Origin: Escherichia coli
GTDB taxonomy: Bacteria > Pseudomonadota > Gammaproteobacteria > Enterobacterales > Enterobacteriaceae
NCBI RefSeq assembly: GCF_048403405.1
Contig: NZ_CP183129.1
Strand: one strand, 5' to 3'
DNA: 64,000 nt
Within the stretch, counting starts at the first letter, position 1, and each line of letters starts with the position of its first letter. Below the pieces are notes generated by a model. It saw only the letters and a program-made list of their open reading frames with translations. It searched no databases and was not told the DNA's origin. The position numbers and the translations under genes are program-made. This document shows positions 16,583-31,026 of the stretch, one piece after another.

Positions 16583-17575
16583 ATGAGTCAGAATACGCTG
16601 AAAGTTCATGATTTAAATGAAGATGCGGAATTTGATGAGAACGGAGTTGAGGTTTTTGACGAAAAGGCCTTAGTAGAAGAGGAACCCAGTGATAACGATT
16701 TGGCCGAAGAGGAACTGTTATCGCAGGGAGCCACACAGCGTGTGCTGGACGCGACTCAGCTTTACCTTGGTGAGATTGGTTATTCACCACTGTTAACGGC
16801 CGAAGAAGAAGTTTATTTTGCGCGTCGCGCACTGCGTGGAGATGTTGCCTCCCGCCGCCGGATGATCGAGAGTAACTTGCGTCTGGTGGTAAAAATTGCC
16901 CGCCGTTATGGCAATCGTGGTCTGGCGTTGCTGGACCTGATCGAAGAGGGCAACCTGGGGCTGATCCGCGCGGTAGAGAAGTTTGACCCGGAACGTGGTT
17001 TCCGCTTCTCAACATACGCAACCTGGTGGATTCGCCAGACGATCGAACGGGCGATTATGAACCAAACCCGTACTATTCGTTTGCCTATTCACATCGTAAA
17101 GGAGCTGAACGTTTACCTGCGAACCGCACGCGAGTTGTCCCATAAACTGGACCACGAACCAAGTGCGGAAGAGATCGCAGAGCAACTGGATAAGCCAGTT
17201 GATGACGTCAGCCGTATGCTTCGTCTTAACGAGCGCATTACCTCGGTAGACACCCCGCTGGGTGGTGATTCCGAAAAAGCGTTGCTGGACATCCTGGCCG
17301 ATGAAAAAGAGAACGGTCCGGAAGATACCACGCAAGATGACGATATGAAGCAGAGCATCGTCAAATGGCTGTTCGAGCTGAACGCCAAACAGCGTGAAGT
17401 ACTGGCACGTCGATTCGGTTTGCTGGGGTACGAAGCGGCAACATTGGAAGATGTAGGTCGTGAAATTGGCCTCACCCGTGAACGTGTTCGCCAGATTCAG
17501 GTTGAAGGCCTGCGCCGTTTGCGCGAAATCCTGCAAACGCAGGGGCTGAATATCGAAGCGCTGTTCCGCGAGTAA
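16583..17575 (+). CDS. rpoS: RNA polymerase sigma factor RpoS (sigma-38)
   Basis: Track ORF 16547..17575 trimmed to ATG 16583 ([21 protein letters not shown]); 330 aa. Confidence 0.95.
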
Positions 17576-17590
17576 GTAAGCATCTGTCAG

Positions 17591-17629
17591 AAAGGCCAGT
17601 CTCAAGCGAGGCTGGCCTTTTTCTTTTGG
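17591..17629. terminator. Rho-independent terminator between convergent rpoS and the MarR-like gene
   Basis: AAAGGCCAG (17591-17599) pairs with CTGGCCTTT (17612-17620), followed by TTCTTTTGG; A-run before and T-run after allow either direction. Confidence 0.6.
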
Positions 17630-17694
17630 TTGGGGAGCCGGTGTGTTTGTGGGCTGGATAAGCCGCAATAGCGTCTCATCCGGCAATTTGCACC

Positions 17695-18102
17695 CTATGT
17701 GTTCATCATCTTGCGCACTAGCTGCATAAACAGCTCCTGCTCTTCTCCACTCAAACGCCCCAAAAATTCCTCATCCACGCTGTCACCTATCGGTATCGCC
17801 GCAGCAAGTATCTTTTCGCCTTCGGCAGTCAGCCAGACAAAGCGTCGCCGCTTGTCAGCGGCGTCATGTTCACGTCTGACTAAGCCACGATTTTCCATTC
17901 TTGCCAACATTTCTGCCAGCGTTGCTTTGGTGCTGACGGCTGCTTCCATCAGTGCCACCTGTTCGATACCAGGTTTATCAGCAATGGCGCGCATCACCGC
18001 GTACTGTGGTTTGGTCAGATCAGGTAACTCGTGCTGCCAGCGGGCCGTGTGTTGCTGAAAAAGCTGTCGTAACTGATGGAACGCTTTATTTCGTAACGCC
18101 AT
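17695..18102 (-). CDS. MarR/SlyA-family transcriptional regulator
   Basis: 135 aa ORF with winged-helix MarR-like sequence; divergent from the ubiX-like gene. Confidence 0.75.
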   Translation of the reverse strand: MALRNKAFHQLRQLFQQHTARWQHELPDLTKPQYAVMRAIADKPGIEQVALMEAAVSTKATLAEMLARMENRGLVRREHDAADKRRRFVWLTAEGEKILAAAIPIGDSVDEEFLGRLSGEEQELFMQLVRKMMNT

Positions 18103-18248
18103 GTAAACTCCGGGCTAATTCTCTGTCGCTATCATAGCGGTTTTTCAGTGACGAAGAAGATGTTGTTACTTTTCAATCCTTGCCGCTGTGGAAATGAAGG
18201 AGTATGTTAATAATAACGTTCGTATACGAACAATTAAGAGAGTAAGCA

Positions 18249-18842
18249 ATGAAACTGATCGTCGGGATGACAGGGGCTACCGGTGCGCCTCTTGGTGTGG
18301 CATTACTGCAAGCGCTGCGGGAGATGCCGAATGTCGAGACTCATCTGGTGATGTCGAAGTGGGCGAAAACCACTATTGAACTGGAAACGCCTTACAGCGC
18401 TCGCGATGTTGCCGCCCTCGCAGACTTCAGCCATAACCCGGCGGATCAGGCGGCGACTATCTCTTCCGGCTCCTTTCGTACCGACGGCATGATCGTTATT
18501 CCATGCAGTATGAAAACGCTCGCCGGTATCCGCGCTGGTTACGCCGATGGCCTGGTGGGGCGCGCGGCGGACGTCGTGCTCAAAGAAGGCCGCAAACTGG
18601 TGCTGGTGCCGCGTGAAATGCCGCTTAGCACAATCCATCTCGAAAATATGCTCGCACTTTCGCGCATGGGCGTGGCGATGGTGCCGCCGATGCCTGCCTT
18701 TTATAACCATCCCGAAACGGTAGATGACATTGTCCACCACGTGGTAGCCCGCGTGCTGGATCAATTTGGCCTCGAACATCCTCACGCCAGGCGCTGGCAA
18801 GGATTGCCGCAGGCCCGGAATTTTTCTCAGGAGAATGAATAA
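18249..18842 (+). CDS. ecdB: UbiX-like flavin prenyltransferase (decarboxylase partner)
   Basis: 197 aa ORF starting MKLIVGMTGATGAPLG (flavoprotein fold); stop overlaps the next start. Symbol is from memory of O157:H7 annotation. Confidence 0.8.
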   Translation: MKLIVGMTGATGAPLGVALLQALREMPNVETHLVMSKWAKTTIELETPYSARDVAALADFSHNPADQAATISSGSFRTDGMIVIPCSMKTLAGIRAGYADGLVGRAADVVLKEGRKLVLVPREMPLSTIHLENMLALSRMGVAMVPPMPAFYNHPETVDDIVHHVVARVLDQFGLEHPHARRWQGLPQARNFSQENE

Positions 18843-20269
18843 TGGCATTTGATGATTTACGCAGCTTTTTACAGGCGCTTGATGACCACGGCCAGTTACT
18901 GAAAATCAGCGAAGAGGTGAACGCGGAACCGGATCTGGCAGCCGCAGCCAACGCCACCGGGCGTATCGGCGACGGCGCGCCCGCGCTTTGGTTTGATAAT
19001 ATTCGCGGCTTTATCGATGCCCGCGTGGCAATGAACACCATCGGTTCCTGGCAGAACCACGCGATTTCCCTCGGCCTGCCGCCAAACACCCCGGTTAAAA
19101 AACAGATTGATGAGTTTATCCGCCGCTGGGATAACTTCCCCATTACCCCGGAGCGCCGCGCCAATCCAGCCTGGGCGCAGAACACCGTCGATGGCGACGA
19201 GATCAACCTGTTCGATATTCTGCCGCTGTTTCGTTTAAACGACGGTGATGGCGGTTTCTATCTCGATAAAGCGTGCGTGGTTTCCCGCGATCCGCTCGAC
19301 CCGGATAACTTCGGCAAGCAGAACGTCGGCATCTACCGCATGGAAGTGAAGGGCAAACGTAAGCTCGGCCTGCAACCGGTGCCGATGCACGATATCGCTC
19401 TGCATCTGCATAAAGCGGAAGAACGCGGTGAAGATCTGCCGATTGCCATCACCCTGGGTAACGATCCGAACATCACCCTGATGGGCGCCACGCCGCTGAA
19501 ATACGATCAGTCTGAGTACGAAATGGCGGGCGCGCTGCGCGAAAGCCCGTACCCGATCGCCACCGCCCCGCTGACCGGTTTTGATGTGCCGTGGGGCTCG
19601 GAAGTGATCCTCGAAGGGGTTATCGAAAGTCGTAAACGTGAGATTGAAGGGCCGTTCGGTGAGTTTACCGGCCACTACTCCGGCGGGCGTAACATGACCG
19701 TGGTGCGTATCGATAAAGTCTCTTACCGTACCAAACCGATTTTCGAATCGCTCTATCTTGGTATGCCGTGGACCGAAATCGACTACCTGATGGGGCCTGC
19801 CACCTGCGTGCCGCTGTATCAGCAACTGAAAGCCGAGTTCCCGGAAGTGCAGGCGGTAAACGCCATGTACACCCACGGCCTGTTGGCGATTATCTCCACC
19901 AAAAAACGCTACGGCGGCTTTGCCCGCGCGGTGGGCCTGCGTGCAATGACCACGCCGCACGGTCTGGGCTACGTGAAGATGGTGATTATGGTCGATGAAG
20001 ACGTTGATCCGTTCAACCTGCCGCAGGTGATGTGGGCGCTCTCCTCGAAAGTGAACCCGGCAGGCGACCTGGTGCAGTTGCCAAATATGTCCGTGCTGGA
20101 ACTCGACCCTGGCTCAAGCCCGGCGGGGATCACCGACAAGCTGATTATCGACGCCACCACGCCTGTCGCCCCGGACAACCGTGGTCACTACAGCCAGCCG
20201 GTGGTGGATTTACCGGAAACCAAAGCCTGGGCTGAAAAACTGACCGCTATGCTGGCCGCACGTAAATAA
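18842..20269 (+). CDS. ecdC: UbiD-family hydroxyarylic acid decarboxylase, large subunit
   Basis: 475 aa ORF of UbiD-like length, coupled to the ubiX-like gene. Confidence 0.8.
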   Translation: MAFDDLRSFLQALDDHGQLLKISEEVNAEPDLAAAANATGRIGDGAPALWFDNIRGFIDARVAMNTIGSWQNHAISLGLPPNTPVKKQIDEFIRRWDNFPITPERRANPAWAQNTVDGDEINLFDILPLFRLNDGDGGFYLDKACVVSRDPLDPDNFGKQNVGIYRMEVKGKRKLGLQPVPMHDIALHLHKAEERGEDLPIAITLGNDPNITLMGATPLKYDQSEYEMAGALRESPYPIATAPLTGFDVPWGSEVILEGVIESRKREIEGPFGEFTGHYSGGRNMTVVRIDKVSYRTKPIFESLYLGMPWTEIDYLMGPATCVPLYQQLKAEFPEVQAVNAMYTHGLLAIISTKKRYGGFARAVGLRAMTTPHGLGYVKMVIMVDEDVDPFNLPQVMWALSSKVNPAGDLVQLPNMSVLELDPGSSPAGITDKLIIDATTPVAPDNRGHYSQPVVDLPETKAWAEKLTAMLAARK

Positions 20270-20279
20270 GGAGAACAAG

Positions 20280-20516
20280 ATGATTTGTCCACGTTGTGCT
20301 GATGAACAGATTGAAGTGATGGCGAAATCGCCGGTAAAAGATGTCTGGACAGTCTATCAGTGCCAGCATTGCCTCTATACCTGGCGCGATACCGAACCGC
20401 TTCGCCGCACCAGCCGCGAACATTACCCGGAAGCGTTTCGTATGACGCAGAAAGACATTGATGACGCGCCAATGGTGCCGAGCATTCCGCCGCTGCTGGC
20501 GGAAGGTAAGCGCTAA
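20280..20516 (+). CDS. ecdD: Decarboxylase small subunit (EcdD/VdcD-like) with zinc-ribbon-like cysteines
   Basis: 78 aa ORF with CPRC...CQHC cysteine pairs, immediately after the UbiD-like gene. Confidence 0.65.
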   Translation: MICPRCADEQIEVMAKSPVKDVWTVYQCQHCLYTWRDTEPLRRTSREHYPEAFRMTQKDIDDAPMVPSIPPLLAEGKR

Positions 20517-20550
20517 ATAAAAGGTCCGATGCCCATCGGACCTTTTTATT
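20517..20550. terminator. Bidirectional rho-independent terminator between ecdD and ygbN
   Basis: GGTCCGATG / CATCGGACC stem flanked by an A-run upstream and TTTTTATT downstream. Confidence 0.65.
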
Positions 20551-20554
20551 AAGG

Positions 20555-21919
20555 TCAAATTACCGCCCATACGCACCAGGTAATTAAGAATCCGGTAAAA
20601 CCGAGAATGGTCGTTAACACTGTCCAGGTTTTCAGACCGTCTGCTACCGACAACCCCAGATATTTGGTCACAATCCAGAACCCTGAGTCATTAATATGTG
20701 ACGCGCCAAGCCCACCAAAGCAGGCTGCCAGCGTCACCAATACGCACTGAATCGGATTCAATCCCATCACCGCTTCTGAGAGTAACCCGCCGGTTGTCAG
20801 GATTGCTACGGTTGCTGACCCCTGCGATGCACGCAGCGCCAGTGAAATAATAAATGCGGCTGGTAACAGAGGCAGGTCAATCATTTGTAGCATGTTGGCA
20901 AGGGCTTTGCCGACGCCCGATTCCACCAGCACTTTGCCAAATACCCCTCCAGCACCAGTAACCAAAATCACTACCGCCGCGGTGGGAAGGGCTGAGCCCA
21001 TAATGTCGCTGGTGTGTTGTAAGCTCCAGCCGCGACGTAAAGCCAATAACCAGAATGCCAGCACCAGCGCAATCATTAGAGCTACCATTGGTGAGCCGAT
21101 CAGCTGTAGCGTACCAAGCAGGGGATGCGAAGGCGGCATCAGTGTTGCGGAAACCGTACCCGCCATGATAATCGCGATAGGAATAACAATTAGCGAGGTG
21201 ACCAGCGCGACGCCCGGTGGATTTATTTTATCGCTTAATTTTGTCGCGCCTTCCTCACTGGCCGGAGCCAGTTGCATCTGTTCCAGTACTTCCACCGACA
21301 TCGCATATTGGCACTTATTGATTATTTTCGCTGCAAAGTAGCCAACAATCCCTACGGGAATAGAAATCGCAATACCGATGATGGTTAGCCAGCCGATGTC
21401 TGCGTGGAGTAACCCCGCTGCGGCGACAGGGCCTGGATGCGGCGGTACCGCCACATGAACAGTTAGCATGATTCCAGCGACAGGCAGGCCAAATTTGAGT
21501 GGCGATATTTTGGCAACCTTGGCAAAACCGTAAATGATTGGCGCAAGAATAATAAAGCCGACATCAAAGAAGACGGGAATACCGAGGAAGAACGCTGCCA
21601 GAGTCAGCGCAGCGATAGTTCGTTTGTCACCTAACTTGCGACTGAAATAATTAGCCAGTGACTCTGCACCACCAGAGTGTTCGATCATACGCCCCAGCAT
21701 AGCGCCCAGACCAATAATAATAGTGACGGAACCAAGCACACCGCCCATCCCGGCGATCATCACTTTACCCACTTCGCCCGCCGGTATACCCGCCGCAAGT
21801 GCGACTAACAGGCTGACGAGGAGCAGAGCAACGAATGGTTGTACCTTTGCCTTGATGACCAGCAGCAACAGCATGATTACGCCAGTTAACGCAATGCATA
21901 ACAATGTAATTGTGGACAT
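20555..21919 (-). CDS. ygbN: GntP-family permease
   Basis: 454 aa polytopic membrane ORF; position next to ygbM as in K-12. Confidence 0.85.
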   Translation of the reverse strand: MSTITLLCIALTGVIMLLLLVIKAKVQPFVALLLVSLLVALAAGIPAGEVGKVMIAGMGGVLGSVTIIIGLGAMLGRMIEHSGGAESLANYFSRKLGDKRTIAALTLAAFFLGIPVFFDVGFIILAPIIYGFAKVAKISPLKFGLPVAGIMLTVHVAVPPHPGPVAAAGLLHADIGWLTIIGIAISIPVGIVGYFAAKIINKCQYAMSVEVLEQMQLAPASEEGATKLSDKINPPGVALVTSLIVIPIAIIMAGTVSATLMPPSHPLLGTLQLIGSPMVALMIALVLAFWLLALRRGWSLQHTSDIMGSALPTAAVVILVTGAGGVFGKVLVESGVGKALANMLQMIDLPLLPAAFIISLALRASQGSATVAILTTGGLLSEAVMGLNPIQCVLVTLAACFGGLGASHINDSGFWIVTKYLGLSVADGLKTWTVLTTILGFTGFLITWCVWAVI

Positions 21920-22007
21920 GGGAAACCCTGTCTGAAAGTTATAGTTAACCTACCCCATCCGTAGATGGGGGGATGTATGGGTACGTTGTAATTAGGGATT
22001 TAACGAA

Positions 22008-22784
22008 TTAGCGCCAGGCGTCAAACCAGCCCAGCCCTTCTTCGGTGAGGCCACGAGGTTTATATTCACAACCGATCCAGCCCTGATATCCCACCTCATC
22101 GAACAGGCGGAACAGCCACGGATAGTTGATTTCTCCATCGTCCGGTTCATGTCGATCAGGTAGTCCGGCAATTTGTACGTGCGCATATTTCCCGGCGTAG
22201 TCGCGGATTAAATGCGTCAGGTTGCCATCTACTTTTTGCGCATGAAAAGTATCTAGTTGAATAAACACGTTATCTCGCGCAACTTCTTCAACAATAGCCA
22301 GTGCCTGATACTGGCTGGAGAAGAGATAATGAGGCTTAACGCCGGGGCTGAGTGCTTCAACTAATATTCGCTTGCCGTGTGGCGCAAAGCGGTCGGCAGC
22401 GTAGCGGAGATTATCGATAAATACTGCCCTGTACCGTTCAGCATCTTCGCCAGCGGGCACGACGCCTGCCATCACATGGACTTGTTCACAATTGAGCGCC
22501 AATGCATATTCCAGTGCCAGGTCGATGTCTGCGTGTGCTTCGTGCTCACGTCCGGGAAGGGCGGATAATCCCCATTCCCCCGCATTAATATCTCCGGGAG
22601 CGGTATTGAACAGCGCCAGTGTCAGATGGTTTTGCTCCAGTTGCTTTTGGATTTGCAGGGTGGAGTAGTCATAGGGAAACAGAAATTCCACAGCATCGAA
22701 CCCGGCTTTTCGCGCTGCGGCGAAGCGTTCAATAAAAGGCACTTCGGTGAACATCATGGATAAATTAGCTGCAAAACGAGGCAT
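22008..22784 (-). CDS. ygbM: Hydroxypyruvate isomerase-family protein (2-oxo-tetronate isomerase)
   Basis: 258 aa ORF in the ygbJ-N operon. Confidence 0.8.
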
Positions 22785-22788
22785 TGCA

Positions 22789-23427
22789 TTAACTCCTTAA
22801 TTCCGCAATTTCACCTGCGGTCAGATAACGGATCGGGCGGTCACCGAGAATAAAAATCAGCTTTGCCGTTTCCTCCAGCTCTTCCATATTGTTGGCGGCT
22901 TCTTGCAGGCTTTCACCGCAAACCACTGGGCCATGATTTGCCAGTAAAAAAGCCTGATTGTCTGCTGCCAGTTCCGCCAGATCCTGTGCGATGCGTTTAT
23001 CGCCCGGTCGGTAATAAGGCACCAGCGGGACATTTCCCATCCGCATCACCACGTATGGTGTGAACGGACGAATAACGTTGCTGCTGTCCAGCCCTTGCAG
23101 GCAGGAAAGCGCCGTCGACCATGTGCTGTGCAAATGCACCACCGCTTTACAGCGCGGATTGTTGCGATACAGCGCCAGATGAAAGAGCACCTCTTTCGAG
23201 GGTTTGTCACCACTTAACCATTCGCCATCCGCGGCGACTTTGGAAAGCCGCTGCGGATCGAGATTGCCCAGGCATGAACCTGTCGGTGTCGCCAGTAAAT
23301 TCCCGTCAGGTAAAAGCAGCGACAAATTGCCAGCCGAACCGGTTGCATAGCCGCGCTGAAAGAATGAACTGGCAATCCGCGTCATCTCCTCTCGCAAAGA
23401 CTGCTCTACTTTTGCGAAATCGCTCAT
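22789..23427 (-). CDS. ygbL: Class II aldolase/adducin-family protein (3-oxo-tetronate 4-phosphate decarboxylase)
   Basis: 212 aa ORF in the ygbJ-N operon. Confidence 0.8.
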
Positions 23428-24686
23428 GATAAAAACTCTCTTTGGGCTCGTGAAAAAAAGGCTTCATCACCGAAGTTGCCAGATTTAAGGGCGAGTGAGA
23501 CAGGTTTATCCAGTGCGTTTACCCACGGCACGCCGGGAGAAATGGTTGGGCCAATATGAAACCCTTTTATTCCCAGGCTCTGTGTGACTACGCCGGAGGT
23601 CTCACCGCCTGCGACAATAAAGCGTGTCACGCCTTCCGCTGCTAACCGCGCCGCTAGTTGAGAAAACAGTGTTTCTACTGCCTGACTGGCTTTATGTGCA
23701 CCGTATTGCTGTTGAATTGCTGCCAATGCGTCAGTGCTGGCAGTGGCAAAAACCAGTGGAGCAAGTACACTTTCCTGGCCCAGAACCCACTCTGCCAGTT
23801 CGTGTGCATAAGCGGCCAGAGTTTCAATTGAGAGGCAGCGTGCCACATCAACTTCACGGGCTGGTGCAATTTGACGGTAATGTGCTACCTGGCAGTTGGT
23901 CATTTGAGAGCATGAACCGGAGAGCACTACGCCGCGCCCAGCGAGCGGATGCCCTGCTTTGCGAGCCTGGTTACCGTTTTCTTGCGCCCACTGCCGGGCA
24001 AGGCCAATCGCCAGACCAGAACCGCCCGTTACCAGTGGGGTATCGCGCAAGGCTTCTCCCTGAATTTCCAGATGGTGTTCGGTCAGCGCATCAAGCACCG
24101 CGTAGCGGTAGCCCTCTTGCTGTAAGCGAGCCAGCTCTTGACGAACGGCATCCACACCTTGTTCGAAAACATGTGCCGAAACGACGCCGCAGCGCCCTGT
24201 GGATTGCGCTTCAACCAGACGGGGAAGATAGCTGTCGGTCATGGGATTTACCGGGTGATGGCGCATCCCGGATTCGGCCAGCAGTTGATTCATTACGAAC
24301 AAATACCCCTGATAAACCGTACGTCCGTTGACCGGCAGGGCCGGAGAGAAGACCGTAAACGGCGTGTCGAGAGCATCCATTAATGCATCGGTAACCGGGC
24401 CGATATTACCTTTCGCCGAACTGTCGAAAGTAGAGCAGTATTTGAAATAGATCTGTTTGCAACCTTGCTGTTGCAACCAGCTCAGTGCCGCCAGCGATTG
24501 CTGTGTGGCTTCAACCACCGGACAGGAACGCGTTTTCAGGCTGATCACCAGTGCGTCGATTGCTTCCGGCATTTTACCTGTTGGAACACCGTTAATTTGT
24601 ACCGTTGGTAGACCGTTTTCCACCAGAAAACTGGCGATATCCGTCGCGCCGGTAAAATCATCGGCGATAACGCCAATCTTGATCAT
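23424..24686 (-). CDS. ygbK: Four-carbon acid sugar kinase (3-oxo-tetronate kinase)
   Basis: 420 aa ORF; overlaps neighbours by 4 nt at both ends. Confidence 0.8.
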   Translation of the reverse strand: MIKIGVIADDFTGATDIASFLVENGLPTVQINGVPTGKMPEAIDALVISLKTRSCPVVEATQQSLAALSWLQQQGCKQIYFKYCSTFDSSAKGNIGPVTDALMDALDTPFTVFSPALPVNGRTVYQGYLFVMNQLLAESGMRHHPVNPMTDSYLPRLVEAQSTGRCGVVSAHVFEQGVDAVRQELARLQQEGYRYAVLDALTEHHLEIQGEALRDTPLVTGGSGLAIGLARQWAQENGNQARKAGHPLAGRGVVLSGSCSQMTNCQVAHYRQIAPAREVDVARCLSIETLAAYAHELAEWVLGQESVLAPLVFATASTDALAAIQQQYGAHKASQAVETLFSQLAARLAAEGVTRFIVAGGETSGVVTQSLGIKGFHIGPTISPGVPWVNALDKPVSLALKSGNFGDEAFFSRAQREFLS

Positions 24687-26604: not shown

Positions 26605-27261
26605 CTACTTTATTTTATAAAATGACAGCCGCCCGCTTTTCGGCGATCCGGTATCAATATAAATCTGGTTTGCGAGCGTCTGAATGTTATCAAACATCAT
26701 ATGTCCAAATATAAAATAATCAGCGCCGTTTATTTGTTGTAACTCGCCATTAAGCGATTTCTGCACACGATCAACAGGCCAGAGTAGTTCTCTCTCCGCT
26801 ATTTCTTTGCCAAAGAGATATTCATTCCCCGGATAATCTGCATGTGCGATGACATATTTTATTATGTCGTTAGTGATTTCAATAATATGTGGAAGGCGAT
26901 GAAATTTCAGCAACAGATTTATTGCTTCTTGTTGTTCCGTCTCATTTAATTCAAAGAACCAGTCGCCGCCGCTGGCAAGCCACATATTTCCATCGCCAGT
27001 TTCGAATGCATCAAGCGCCATCGCTTCATGGTTGCCTTTAACCGATGTAAACCAGGGCTGGTTTAACAGGCGTAGTACGTTAAGACTCTCCGGCCCACGA
27101 TCAATATTATCGCCGACAGAAATAAGTAAGTCGGTTTCAGGGAAAAAAGAGAGTTGATGTAAGCGGGATTGTAATAATTGATAGTCACCATGAATATCAC
27201 CAACGGCCCATATATAACGATAGTGATGGGCATTAATTTTTTGATAGCGTGTAGATGGCAT
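26605..27261 (-). CDS. pphB: Serine/threonine protein phosphatase 2
   Basis: 218 aa ORF with metallophosphatase motifs (GDIHGD, GDNIDRG, GNHE). Confidence 0.9.
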   Translation of the reverse strand: MPSTRYQKINAHHYRYIWAVGDIHGDYQLLQSRLHQLSFFPETDLLISVGDNIDRGPESLNVLRLLNQPWFTSVKGNHEAMALDAFETGDGNMWLASGGDWFFELNETEQQEAINLLLKFHRLPHIIEITNDIIKYVIAHADYPGNEYLFGKEIAERELLWPVDRVQKSLNGELQQINGADYFIFGHMMFDNIQTLANQIYIDTGSPKSGRLSFYKIK

Positions 27262-27366
27262 GGTTTTACCCTGTAAAATAAGATTTCCTATTATACAGGG
27301 TGTTTTTATTTGATTCGTCAGTTGTCGTTAATATTCCCGATAGCAAAAGACTATCGGGAATTGTTA

Positions 27367-29928
27367 TTACACCAGACTCTTCAAGCGATAAATCCACTCC
27401 AGCGCCTGACGCGGAGTCAGTGAATCCGGGTCGAGGTTTTCCAGTGCCTCGACCGCAGGCGAAGTTTCTTCTGGTACGGACAGCAAAGACATCTGCGTGC
27501 CATCTACCTGCGTCGCGGCGGCATTCGGCGAAATGCTCTCCAGCTCACGCAGTTTCTGCCGCGCGCGTTTGATCACCTCTTTTGGCACGCCCGCAAGGGC
27601 TGCAACCGCCAGGCCGTAGCTTTTGCTCGCCGCGCCATCCTGCACGCTGTGCATAAAGGCAATGGTGTCGCCGTGCTCCAGTGCATCGAGATGCACGTTG
27701 GCGACGCCTTCCATTTTCTCCGGTAACTGGGTCAGCTCGAAATAGTGGGTGGCAAACAACGTCAACGCTTTAATCTTATTCGCCAGATTTTCCGCGCACG
27801 CCCACGCCAGCGACAGACCATCGTAAGTGGACGTCCCGCGCCCAATCTCATCCATCAGTACCAGACTGTACTCGGTGGCGTTATGTAAAATATTGGCGGT
27901 TTCGGTCATTTCCACCATAAAGGTTGAACGCCCGGATGCCAGATCATCCGCTGCCCCTACGCGGGTAAAGATGCGATCGATAGGTCCAATCTCGACTTTT
28001 TGTGCCGGTACATAGCTGCCGATGTAGGCCATCAGCGCAATCAGTGCGGTCTGGCGCATATAGGTACTTTTACCGCCCATATTCGGACCGGTAATGATCA
28101 ACATGCGACGCTGCGGCGACAGGTTCAGCGGGTTGGCGATAAACGGCTCATTCAGCACCTGTTCAACCACCGGATGGCGGCCTTCGGTGATGCGAATACC
28201 CGGTTTATCAATAAAGGTCGGGCAGGTGTAGTTCAGGGTATAGGCCCGTTCCGCCAGGTTCACCAGCACGTCGAGTTCCGCCAGTGCGCTCGCGCTCTGT
28301 TGCAACGCTTCCAGATGCGGCAACAGCAGGTCGAACAGCTCTTCATAAAGCTGTTTTTCCAGTGCCAGTGCTTTGCCTTTTGAAGTGAGAACTTTGTCTT
28401 CGTACTCTTTTAGCTCTGGAATAATGTAGCGCTCGGCGTTTTTCAGCGTCTGGCGACGCATGTAATTGATGGGTGCCAGATGGCTTTGTCCACGGCTGAT
28501 CTGAATGTAATAACCATGAACCGCGTTAAAGCCGACTTTCAGGGTGTCCAGGCCAGTACGTTCACGCTCGCGGACTTCCAGACGCTCCAGATAATCGGTC
28601 GCGCCGTCAGCCAGCGCGCGCCACTCATCCAGCTCTTCGTTATAGCCCGGTGCGATAACACCACCGTCGCGTACCAGCACCGGCGGTGTGTCGATGATTG
28701 CTCGCTCCAGCAGATCGCGCAGCTCGGCAAACTCGCCCATTTTTTCACGCAGCGCCTGTACCGGAGCGCTATCGACATTTTCTAACTGCGCGCGCAGCTC
28801 CGGCAGTTGCTGGAAAGCGTGACGCATACGGGCCAGATCGCGTGGGCGAGCAGTTCGTAAAGCCAGACGCGCCAGAATACGTTCCAGGTCGCCGACCTGA
28901 CGCAGTACCGGCTGCAGCTCGGCGGTGAAATCCTGCAATGCGCCAATAGTTTGCTGGCGCTCAAGCAAGACGCGGGTATCGCGCACTGGCATATGCAGCC
29001 AGCGTTTCAGCATACGGCTGCCCATCGGCGTGACGGTGCAGTCGAGCACAGAAGCCAGCGTATTTTCCGCACCGCCCGCCAGGTTCTGGGTAATTTCCAG
29101 GTTACGACGCGTCGCGGCATCCATAATGATGCTGTCCTGCTCACGTTCCATGGTGATAGAACGAATATGCGGCAGGGTCGTGCGTTGAGTATCTTTCGCA
29201 TACTGCAACAGACAACCGGCAGCACAAAGTCCGCGCGGCGCGTTCTCGACGCCAAAACCGACCAGATCGCGGGTGCCAAATTGCAGATTCAACTGCTGGC
29301 GCGCGGTGTCGATTTCAAACTCCCACAGCGGGCGACGGCGCAGTCCGCGACGACCTTCAATCAGCGACATCTCGGCGAAATTTTCTGCATACAACAGCTC
29401 TGCCGGATTAGTGCGTTGCAGCTCTGCCGCCATCGTTTCGCGGTCAGCCGGTTCGCTCAGGCGAAAACGACCGGAACTGATATCCAGCGTCGCGTAGCCG
29501 AAACCTTTGCTGTCCTGCCAGATAGCCGCCAGCAGGTTATCCTGACGCTCCTGCAACAGCGCTTCATCGCTGATGGTGCCCGGCGTAACGATACGCACAA
29601 CTTTGCGCTCAACCGGACCTTTGCTGGTCGCCGGATCGCCAATTTGTTCGCAGATGGCAACGGACTCGCCCTGATTCACCAGTTTGGCGAGGTAGTTTTC
29701 CACCGCATGGTAGGGGATCCCCGCCATCGGGATCGGCTCTCCCGCCGAAGCACCGCGTTTGGTCAGTGAAATATCCAGCAGTTGCGACGCGCGTTTTGCG
29801 TCGTCATAAAACAGTTCATAAAAATCACCCATCCGGTAAAACAGCAGGATCTCGGGATGCTGGGCTTTCAGCTTGAGATATTGCTGCATCATGGGCGTAT
29901 GGGCATCGAAATTTTCTATTGCACTCAT
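27367..29928 (-). CDS. mutS: DNA mismatch repair protein MutS
   Basis: 853 aa ORF starting [18 protein letters not shown] with Walker [10 protein letters not shown]. Confidence 0.97.
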
Positions 29929-30597: not shown

Positions 30598-31026
30598 TTA
30601 CGCTTTGGTGGCAATCAGGATGGCTGATGCTTTGATCAATGCAATAACGCGCGAGCCAGTGGTGAGTTTCATTTCATCCTGACTTTCATTTGTTACCACT
30701 GCCACAATTTCAAAACCCGCATCCGTTTTGATATGGACAGTGGCGTTCACTGCGCCTTCGGTGATTGTCGACACGCTGCCAGCAAACTGGTTGCGAGCAG
30801 AGAATTTCAGTCCACAGTCTTCCGTTGCCAGCGTTACCCACGGGGCTTTAATCAGGGCAATCGCTTCTTTCCCTTTCGCCAGACCCAGCGCTTGCTGGCT
30901 GCTGTGAGTCACAATTGCCACCAGCTTTGCACCACCTGCCAGCGTCAGTTCTACTTCATCATTCACAGCGCCCATTGCTACTGCGCTAACTGTTCCGGTT
31001 AATTGATTTCTTGCTGAAACTGCCAT
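30598..31026 (-). CDS. Molybdopterin/molybdate-binding protein with two TOBE (Mop) domains
   Basis: Track ORF trimmed to ATG at 31026, which has AGGAGG 4 nt upstream; 142 aa with two repeated ~70-aa halves (SARNQLTGTVS / SARNQFAGSVS). Confidence 0.75.
   Translation of the reverse strand: MAVSARNQLTGTVSAVAMGAVNDEVELTLAGGAKLVAIVTHSSQQALGLAKGKEAIALIKAPWVTLATEDCGLKFSARNQFAGSVSTITEGAVNATVHIKTDAGFEIVAVVTNESQDEMKLTTGSRVIALIKASAILIATKA

Follow-up and report, generated by a model that had tools for sequence, protein, structure and literature searches.

The closest described relatives of the locus reported here are the three-subunit non-oxidative hydroxyarylic acid decarboxylases and the Escherichia coli regulator HosA. 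In the decarboxylases, VdcD is a zinc ribbon that is required for the activity of VdcC on 4-hydroxybenzoate (4-HBA) and vanillate, and the enzyme is inactivated by oxygen (PMC8379154). VdcC and VdcD form a tight complex, in which six small subunits are located on the C hexamer, and VdcD is proposed to keep the catalytic loops in position (PMC8379154). According to Lupa 2005, as cited in PMC6424909, Klebsiella kpdBCD expressed in E. coli converts 4-HBA into phenol. HosA is reported to repress itself and the adjoining operon by way of a palindromic site that lies downstream of the start of transcription; 4-HBA is reported to free the HosA of strain UMN026 from DNA (Roy & Ranjan 2016, as relayed in bioRxiv 10.1101/2024.04.24.590444 and PMC6261655). 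The dissociation constant (KD) of HosA for 4-HBA is ~4.7 µM (PMC6261655). Here we describe the block hosA–ecdBCD, which lies between rpoS and ygbN in a stretch of 64,000 nucleotides of E. coli DNA (contig NZ_CP183129.1 of assembly GCF_048403405.1; this whole stretch is called the window below). We read the block as a HosA-regulated non-oxidative hydroxyarylic acid decarboxylase locus, an old resident of this position that was lost by K-12, and assign to this reading a probability of roughly 0.92.

Gene content of the block and the decarboxylase subunits

The block consists of four open reading frames (ORFs), all of which are full length and undisrupted. The hosA gene (17695–18102, minus strand) encodes a regulator of the MarR/SlyA family with 135 residues, and is divergent from ecdB. 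On the plus strand, ecdB (18249–18842; pad1/vdcB/kpdB type) encodes a UbiX-family flavin prenyltransferase of 197 residues, ecdC (18842–20269; vdcC/kpdC/yclC type) encodes a UbiD-family catalytic subunit of 475 residues that depends on prenylated flavin mononucleotide (prFMN), and ecdD (20280–20516; vdcD/kpdD type) encodes a zinc-ribbon activator subunit of 78 residues. Other names of the block are pad1–yclC–yclD, kpdBCD-like and vdcBCD-like. The original prediction, which was made from the letters alone, had placed a divergent MarR-like regulator and a three-gene UbiX/UbiD-type operon between rpoS and ygbN. The ORFs are located where it put them, the three enzyme subunits score above the cut-offs of the VdcB, VdcC and VdcD models, and the regulator is HosA.

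The stop codon of ecdB overlaps the ATG of ecdC by 1 nt, the gap between ecdC and ecdD is 10 nt, and an AAGGAG ribosome-binding site precedes ecdD. The gene order B–C–D, the single upstream control region and the terminator after ecdD indicate that the three genes form one operon. Long antisense ORFs (181, 193 and 241 residues) are present inside ecdB and ecdC; in the annotated frames, nearly every substitution that separates the alleles is synonymous. The window was compared with E. coli TUM14771, and only 5 of the 40,554 compared positions differ. In the annotation of TUM14771, all four block genes and ygbN, ygbM, otnC, otnK, ltnD and ygbI are intact coding sequences, in agreement with the prediction that this strain carries both the block and a complete ygbI–N cluster.

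The subunits were assigned with the NCBIfam models entitled 'non-oxidative hydroxyarylic acid decarboxylases subunit B, C, D', whose curated cut-offs are 290, 650 and 30 bits, respectively. EcdB scores 312.2 bits with NF041206 (VdcB) and 246 bits with TIGR00421, and UbiX subfamily models also match. It is aligned over its full length with PDB entry 1SBZ (Pad1 of E. coli O157:H7; E-value 1.6e-129), and has one amino-acid substitution relative to the O157:H7 protein. EcdC scores 787.3 bits with NF041204 (VdcC), and is aligned end to end with chain A of PDB entry 7AE4, VdcC of Sedimentibacter hydroxybenzoicus (E-value 1.8e-159). The catalytic R-E-E residues are kept as R166 (in GIYR) and as E269 and E274 (in EGPFGE). 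With the UbiD equivalog model, EcdC scores 174 bits, far under the cut-off of 788 bits. EcdD scores 121.2 bits with NF041205 (VdcD) and matches chain a of 7AE4 (ShdD/VdcD) with an E-value of 3e-11. Cys3, Cys6, Cys28 and Cys31 of EcdD, which form two CxxC knuckles, occupy the positions of the four Zn ligands in VdcD of S. hydroxybenzoicus (PMC8379154).

Compared with the alleles of O157:H7 and of enteropathogenic E. coli (EPEC) E2348/69, the block genes show 2.7–5.5% nucleotide differences, nearly all of them synonymous. The ratio of non-synonymous to synonymous rates (dN/dS) against other E. coli alleles is 0–0.08 across the block, with 0.06–0.08 for hosA and 0.02 for ecdC. For ecdC, 43–57 synonymous and 3–5 non-synonymous differences are counted, and for ecdD, 10–13 synonymous differences and no non-synonymous difference. 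Because the dN/dS values are 0–0.08, the alleles indicate that the block genes are under purifying selection. Over half of the E. coli genomes do without the block, and the genes could on that ground be regarded as decaying remnants that have no function in this strain. Such decay has next to no probability against four full-length ORFs, intact catalytic and Zn-ligand residues, and 10–57 synonymous versus 0–5 non-synonymous differences per gene between alleles that are ~4% diverged. Judged by the dN/dS values, the pseudogene alternative is effectively refuted.

HosA, its operator and the control region

The regulator matches PDB entry 8AGA ('Transcriptional regulator HosA') over residues 1–135 with an E-value of 7e-84, and six further PDB entries match. 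It differs at three residues from the HosA of E2348/69, which has been crystallized, and at four residues from that of O157:H7. The control region between hosA and ecdB (18103–18248) is divergent, and contains the perfect 14-bp palindrome GTTCGTATACGAAC at 18218–18231, 18 nt upstream of the ecdB ATG. This palindrome was read from the sequence as the HosA operator. Its core and flanks match the published oligonucleotides of the HosA binding site (PMC6261655 supplement). No other part of the block has diverged as far as the control region, which is 88–89% identical to the alleles of O157:H7 and E2348/69, yet neither the palindrome nor the ribosome-binding site varies among three diverged E. coli alleles. 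A scan with EcdC, using one genome per species, gave 80 loci, and a GTTCG-N4-CGAAC motif with at most two mismatches is located upstream of the operon in 76 of them.

HosA might instead act mainly as a global regulator of motility or virulence, in which case its position beside ecdBCD would be incidental. Reduced FliC and motility are reported for an EPEC hosA mutant, as summarised in bioRxiv 10.1101/2024.04.24.590444, and the older literature labels hosA as 'slyA' (PMC4209514). The assignment as SlyA proper, a label that the original prediction also used, was rejected, as the protein scores 29 bits with the SlyA model NF002926 (cut-off 120 bits); HosA is a MarR-family relative. Besides this weak match, the direct repression and the release by 4-HBA, as they are relayed in the sources given above, argue against a mainly global role. 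Furthermore, regulator, operator and operon occur together in 76 of the 80 species, including taxa in which the locus lies elsewhere in the genome. We consider a mainly global role to be distinctly improbable. With HosA as the local regulator of ecdBCD, HosA bound to GTTCGTATACGAAC just upstream of ecdB would block transcription, and the binding of 4-HBA would free HosA and induce the operon. For the HosA allele of the window, relief of DNA binding by 4-HBA is expected from published near-identical or homologous proteins. HosA and its operator are already in use as a biosensor for 4-HBA.

Two further elements were observed around this region. The palindrome CGCTATCATAGCG (18127–18139) was considered as an extra operator and was assigned no role; it is found in one of the 80 loci, probably an E. 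coli-like contig. It lies 25–37 nt upstream of the hosA start, is followed by a T run, and is kept among E. coli alleles. In many genera, a second HosA-like site, GATCGTATACGAAC, is located ~57 nt upstream of the main operator (loci L005, L008, L009, L016, L018 and others). By reading of the sequence, its counterpart in the window (~18159–18172) is degenerate.

Distribution and history of the block

In K-12 MG1655, rpoS directly adjoins ygbN, as the original prediction had stated, and 93 bp separate the two stop codons. The corresponding distance in the window is 2979 bp, and the indel amounts to ~2.89 kb. It extends from ~17622/17623 to 20515/20516, and the right edge is located inside the TAA stop codon of ecdD. 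Of the two edges predicted from the letters, the left one (near 17630) compares with ~17622, and the right one (near 20550) had been placed ~35 bp too far to the right. Neither of the two findings that would have spoken against the prediction, a block at this position in K-12 or disrupted ORFs, was obtained. The left edge corresponds to the 3' end of the intrinsic terminator hairpin of rpoS (17589–17622, plus strand; a 15-bp stem followed by a T run; -24.5 kcal/mol, z -4.4), and the K-12 sequence matches up to ~17622. K-12-type genomes match again from window position 20516 onward, and 20517–20554 is also present in K-12. This shared part contains an inverted repeat at 20520–20548, which folds into a hairpin on both strands (~-17.5 kcal/mol, z -4.6) and whose sequence is identical in K-12, placing it outside the indel. 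The hairpin could terminate the ecd operon and the convergent ygbN alike. The terminator scan overlooked it, as its A-T pairs absorb the T run; folding reveals it clearly. The K-12 junction carries ~6–8 nt of its own (..ctGTGCAC..).

The block is covered to at least 80% of its length in ~44% of the complete E. coli genomes (2380 of 5426), always on the chromosome, and no plasmid copy was found among the E. coli genomes searched. The junction of ecdD and ygbN as in the window is observed in 1601 of the 5426 genomes. The remaining ~780 carriers resemble O157:H7, in which pphB and mutS are located directly after ecdD and ygbI–N is missing. The allele class of the window (at least 99% identity) is rare, with 26 genomes of the 5426.

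The prediction had also called the mutS–rpoS interval polymorphic among E. coli lineages, and this polymorphism is documented (PMC4209514). According to PMC4209514, the 2.9-kb segment of the O157:H7 type was described by LeClerc 1999 and Herbelin 2000. In o454–nlpD typing, pattern I is that of O157:H7, pattern II that of K-12, pattern III that of B2 strains with a different 2.1-kb insert, and pattern IV combines the block with o454/ygbN (PMC4209514). The window has the hosA–ecdBCD block between rpoS and ygbN, with ygbN present, and corresponds to pattern IV, to which the arrangement of EPEC E2348/69 also belongs. The layout of the block is a lineage marker in this typing of the mutS–rpoS interval. 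The gene content and the arrangement are already known; this is a published and common locus, which has been characterized structurally and biochemically. Publications already cover HosA, 4-HBA as its ligand, its operator and the mechanism of the enzyme.

Among the 80 species loci, rpoS is located within 6 kb of the block in 51, and five more shortened loci contain mutS only. The block is found in the rpoS–mutS interval of Citrobacter, Klebsiella, Enterobacter, Kluyvera, Leclercia, Lelliottia, Kosakonia, Atlantibacter, Franconibacter, Mangrovibacter, Cedecea, Pluralibacter and Pseudocitrobacter, and in inverted form in Salmonella and Phytobacter. Pantoea, Erwinia, Rahnella and Vibrio carry the locus at other genomic positions. 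According to the synteny in the 51 loci and the five loci with mutS, the block is most simply read as an ancestral part of the rpoS–mutS interval in Enterobacteriaceae that the K-12-type lineage has deleted. In most other genera, mutS directly follows ecdD. Thus, the ygbI–N cluster looks like a later arrival, and the O157:H7 layout may be nearer to the old state. B2 strains carry the different 2.1-kb segment in the interval, and the strain of the window has kept the block together with ygbI–N.

The block could alternatively be a horizontally acquired island, for example from Shigella, which was inserted next to rpoS in this lineage. It is patchy in E. coli (44% of genomes), its G+C content of 0.56–0.61 is somewhat above that of the flanks (0.50–0.54), and ecdCD shows signs of exchange between genera, as described below. 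A preprint gives Shigella dysenteriae as the source from which hosA was acquired (bioRxiv 10.1101/2024.04.24.590444). The cross-species synteny contradicts this statement, which is a modest correction to the literature: the order hosA–B–C–D is found in the rpoS–mutS interval across many genera, with rpoS in 51 of 80 loci. In addition, no direct or inverted repeats at the boundaries, no tRNA and no integrase or transposase ORF were found at the block, so that it does not qualify as a mobile island, and plasmid copies are likewise missing from the E. coli genomes searched. The K-12 junction resembles a simple deletion between two terminators. We therefore consider acquisition as an island very unlikely, and retain the reading of an ancestral segment that was deleted in K-12.

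Two observations on the composition of the loci were made in the same scan. In about a dozen species, hosA directly adjoins ecdC with no ecdB between them (L043, L052, L053, L062, L064, L069, L073, L074, L076, L079, L082 and L083); these loci presumably rely on the housekeeping UbiX. The Citrobacter metagenome-assembled genome HRGM_Genome_0066 holds two copies of the locus (L006 and L013). The HosA of one copy is E. coli-like (98% amino-acid identity) and lies on a 6-kb contig, and that of the other is Citrobacter-like (78%). The short E. coli-like contig probably entered the bin as contamination from E. coli.

The ecdC–ecdD part has a history of its own. EcdC shows 97% amino-acid identity to its counterparts in Klebsiella, Enterobacter and Citrobacter, 88–92% to those in Pantoea, Rahnella and Vibrio, and 88–99% across Enterobacterales. 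At the same loci, the identities are 50–81% for HosA, 68–85% for NlpD and 88–96% for MutS, and EcdC is conserved above all three. In three Pseudocitrobacter loci (L005, L008 and L009; ~6001–7680), ecdC–ecdD is 91–96% identical in nucleotides to window positions 18842–20516, which is as near to the window as E. coli alleles are to one another. In contrast, the identities of hosA (71%), ecdB (80–82%), rpoS (89%) and mutS (83–88%) at these loci correspond to ordinary divergence between genera. The comparison suggests that ecdCD was replaced homologously between Escherichia and Pseudocitrobacter. The more general proposal, that homologous replacement in the rpoS–mutS recombination hot spot has carried an unusually conserved ecdC–ecdD core from one genus to another, is tentative, and we rate its chances slightly below even. 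If it is true, selection on the enzyme in gut Enterobacteriaceae would be stronger and more dynamic than the dispensability of the enzyme in K-12 implies.

Relative to K-12, the interval of the window is a mosaic, in which rpoS, ygbN and ygbM are ~99% identical, and pphB and mutS are 93.6% and 95.4% identical, respectively. The pphB and mutS genes (26605–29928) are only 93–95% identical to those of K-12, O157:H7 and E2348/69, whereas ygbN and ygbM (20555–22784) are ~99% identical to those of K-12. The identity of rpoS is 98.8–99.8%. This mosaic divergence fits the known recombination at mutS.

Proposed function and comparison with known systems

EcdB, as a UbiX-type protein, would make the prFMN cofactor. 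EcdC, which is expected to be hexameric, would use prFMN for the reversible removal of CO2, converting 4-HBA into phenol and acting on related phenolic acids such as vanillate. The small zinc-ribbon protein EcdD would bind to EcdC and be needed for its activation. The holoenzyme is expected to be oxygen-sensitive, and would act chiefly under anaerobic or microaerobic conditions, for example in the gut. We infer these substrates, the ligand response, the subunit roles and the oxygen sensitivity from published near-identical or homologous proteins. By the same analogy, the strain probably turns 4-HBA, which is derived from parabens, plant phenolics and tyrosine breakdown, into phenol at low oxygen. 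This trait bears on how phenol and uraemic-toxin precursors are produced in the gut.

The true physiological substrate could be another aromatic acid, such as vanillate, protocatechuate or gallate, or the enzyme could work in the carboxylating direction. VdcCD enzymes, whose reaction is reversible, act on several para-hydroxy aromatic acids (PMC8379154). The B and D homologues of Enterobacter and Klebsiella boost the protocatechuate decarboxylase AroY. Against this, the cognate HosA responds to 4-HBA with the KD of ~4.7 µM given above, and kpdBCD, as relayed in the citing source, turns 4-HBA into phenol. Matsui reportedly purified in 2006 an enzyme of 475 residues from Enterobacter cloacae P240, ~96–97% identical to EcdC, as a 4-hydroxybenzoate decarboxylase. 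Another substrate or the reverse direction is thus unlikely, and 4-HBA is kept as the substrate proposed for the hosA–ecdBCD locus.

Nothing that was found contradicts the reading of the block as a HosA-regulated decarboxylase locus. Several points nevertheless limit it. A scan of 17500–20700 for sigma-70 consensus promoters returned no site, and the operon promoter was not located. A weak candidate, TTGCCG-17-TATGTT at 18180–18208, was read by eye, and would start transcription just upstream of the operator. The activity and the DNA binding ascribed to the allele of the window are carried over from the studied E. coli proteins, from which it is 0–4 residues per protein apart. For the gut, 4-HBA is a candidate physiological substrate. 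HosA has been linked to EPEC motility (bioRxiv 10.1101/2024.04.24.590444), and the local operon may therefore not be its sole target.

The flanks of the block are common to K-12. On the left, rpoS (16583–17575, plus strand; annotated as rpoS in TUM14771) is 98.8% identical in nucleotides to the K-12 gene, and on the right, ygbN (o454; 20555–21919, minus strand), which encodes a GntP-family transporter, is 98.9% identical. Downstream of hosA, the 72 nt that separate its stop codon from the rpoS terminator contain an imperfect palindrome at 17653–17684, which forms a hairpin in the fold of 17625–17697 and belongs to the segment that K-12 lacks. Both strands match the pattern, for which 0 chance matches are expected, and we take the palindrome to be a REP-like element. 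A scan of the whole window with Rfam at the gathering thresholds gave no match, so that no known RNA element was detected in or near the block.

Farther from the block, otnK/ygbK (23424–24686, minus strand) encodes 420 residues and overlaps otnC by 4 nt. In K-12 MG1655, a 1-nt deletion near the 3' end of otnK shifts the frame and results in a product of 388 residues. Because otnK is full length here, the ygb cluster is more intact than in K-12. Between ygbA and fhlA, a TOBE-domain gene (30598–31026, minus strand; c3292-like, for a putative molybdenum-pterin-binding protein) is present, which the K-12 and O157:H7 loci lack at the corresponding place. Upstream of iap, the segment 239–6496 contains a type I-E cas operon (casA to cas2) together with a short array of clustered regularly interspaced short palindromic repeats (CRISPR). 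The array (~6100–6496) was placed by transfer of the TUM14771 annotation and had no Rfam match at the gathering threshold. The cas3 gene, which lies just outside the window, is annotated as frameshifted in TUM14771.

The locus was finally compared with the known systems. It shares with VdcBCD/BsdBCD/ShdBCD of Bacillus subtilis, S. hydroxybenzoicus and Streptomyces, and with KpdBCD of Klebsiella, the three subunits in the order B–C–D, the R-E-E catalytic residues and the CxxC...CxxC Zn ribbon in the D subunit. The Gram-positive Vdc/Bsd/Shd enzymes are, however, distant relatives of the window proteins, as seen in the alignment of the C subunit and in the E-value of 3e-11 for the D subunit, and a HosA-type regulator is not described in the literature consulted on the Vdc/Bsd/Shd systems. 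UbiX and UbiD of E. coli ubiquinone biosynthesis belong to the same two families and share the prFMN chemistry, whereas they are encoded by separate genes elsewhere, act on a membrane-bound polyprenyl-hydroxybenzoate and have no D subunit. The O157:H7 segment has the same four genes in the same order and the same left junction with rpoS, and the proteins are 0–4 residues apart. In that segment, ecdD is followed by pphB and mutS without ygbI–N, whereas the window has ygbN through ygbI, and the nucleotide identity is only 94.5–97%. The layout of EPEC E2348/69, for whose HosA structures have been solved (8AGA and others), is identical to that of the window, rpoS–hosA–ecdBCD–ygbN...ygbI–pphB–mutS, and the difference is allelic only, with nucleotide identities of 95.8–97.3% for the genes and 89% for the control region.

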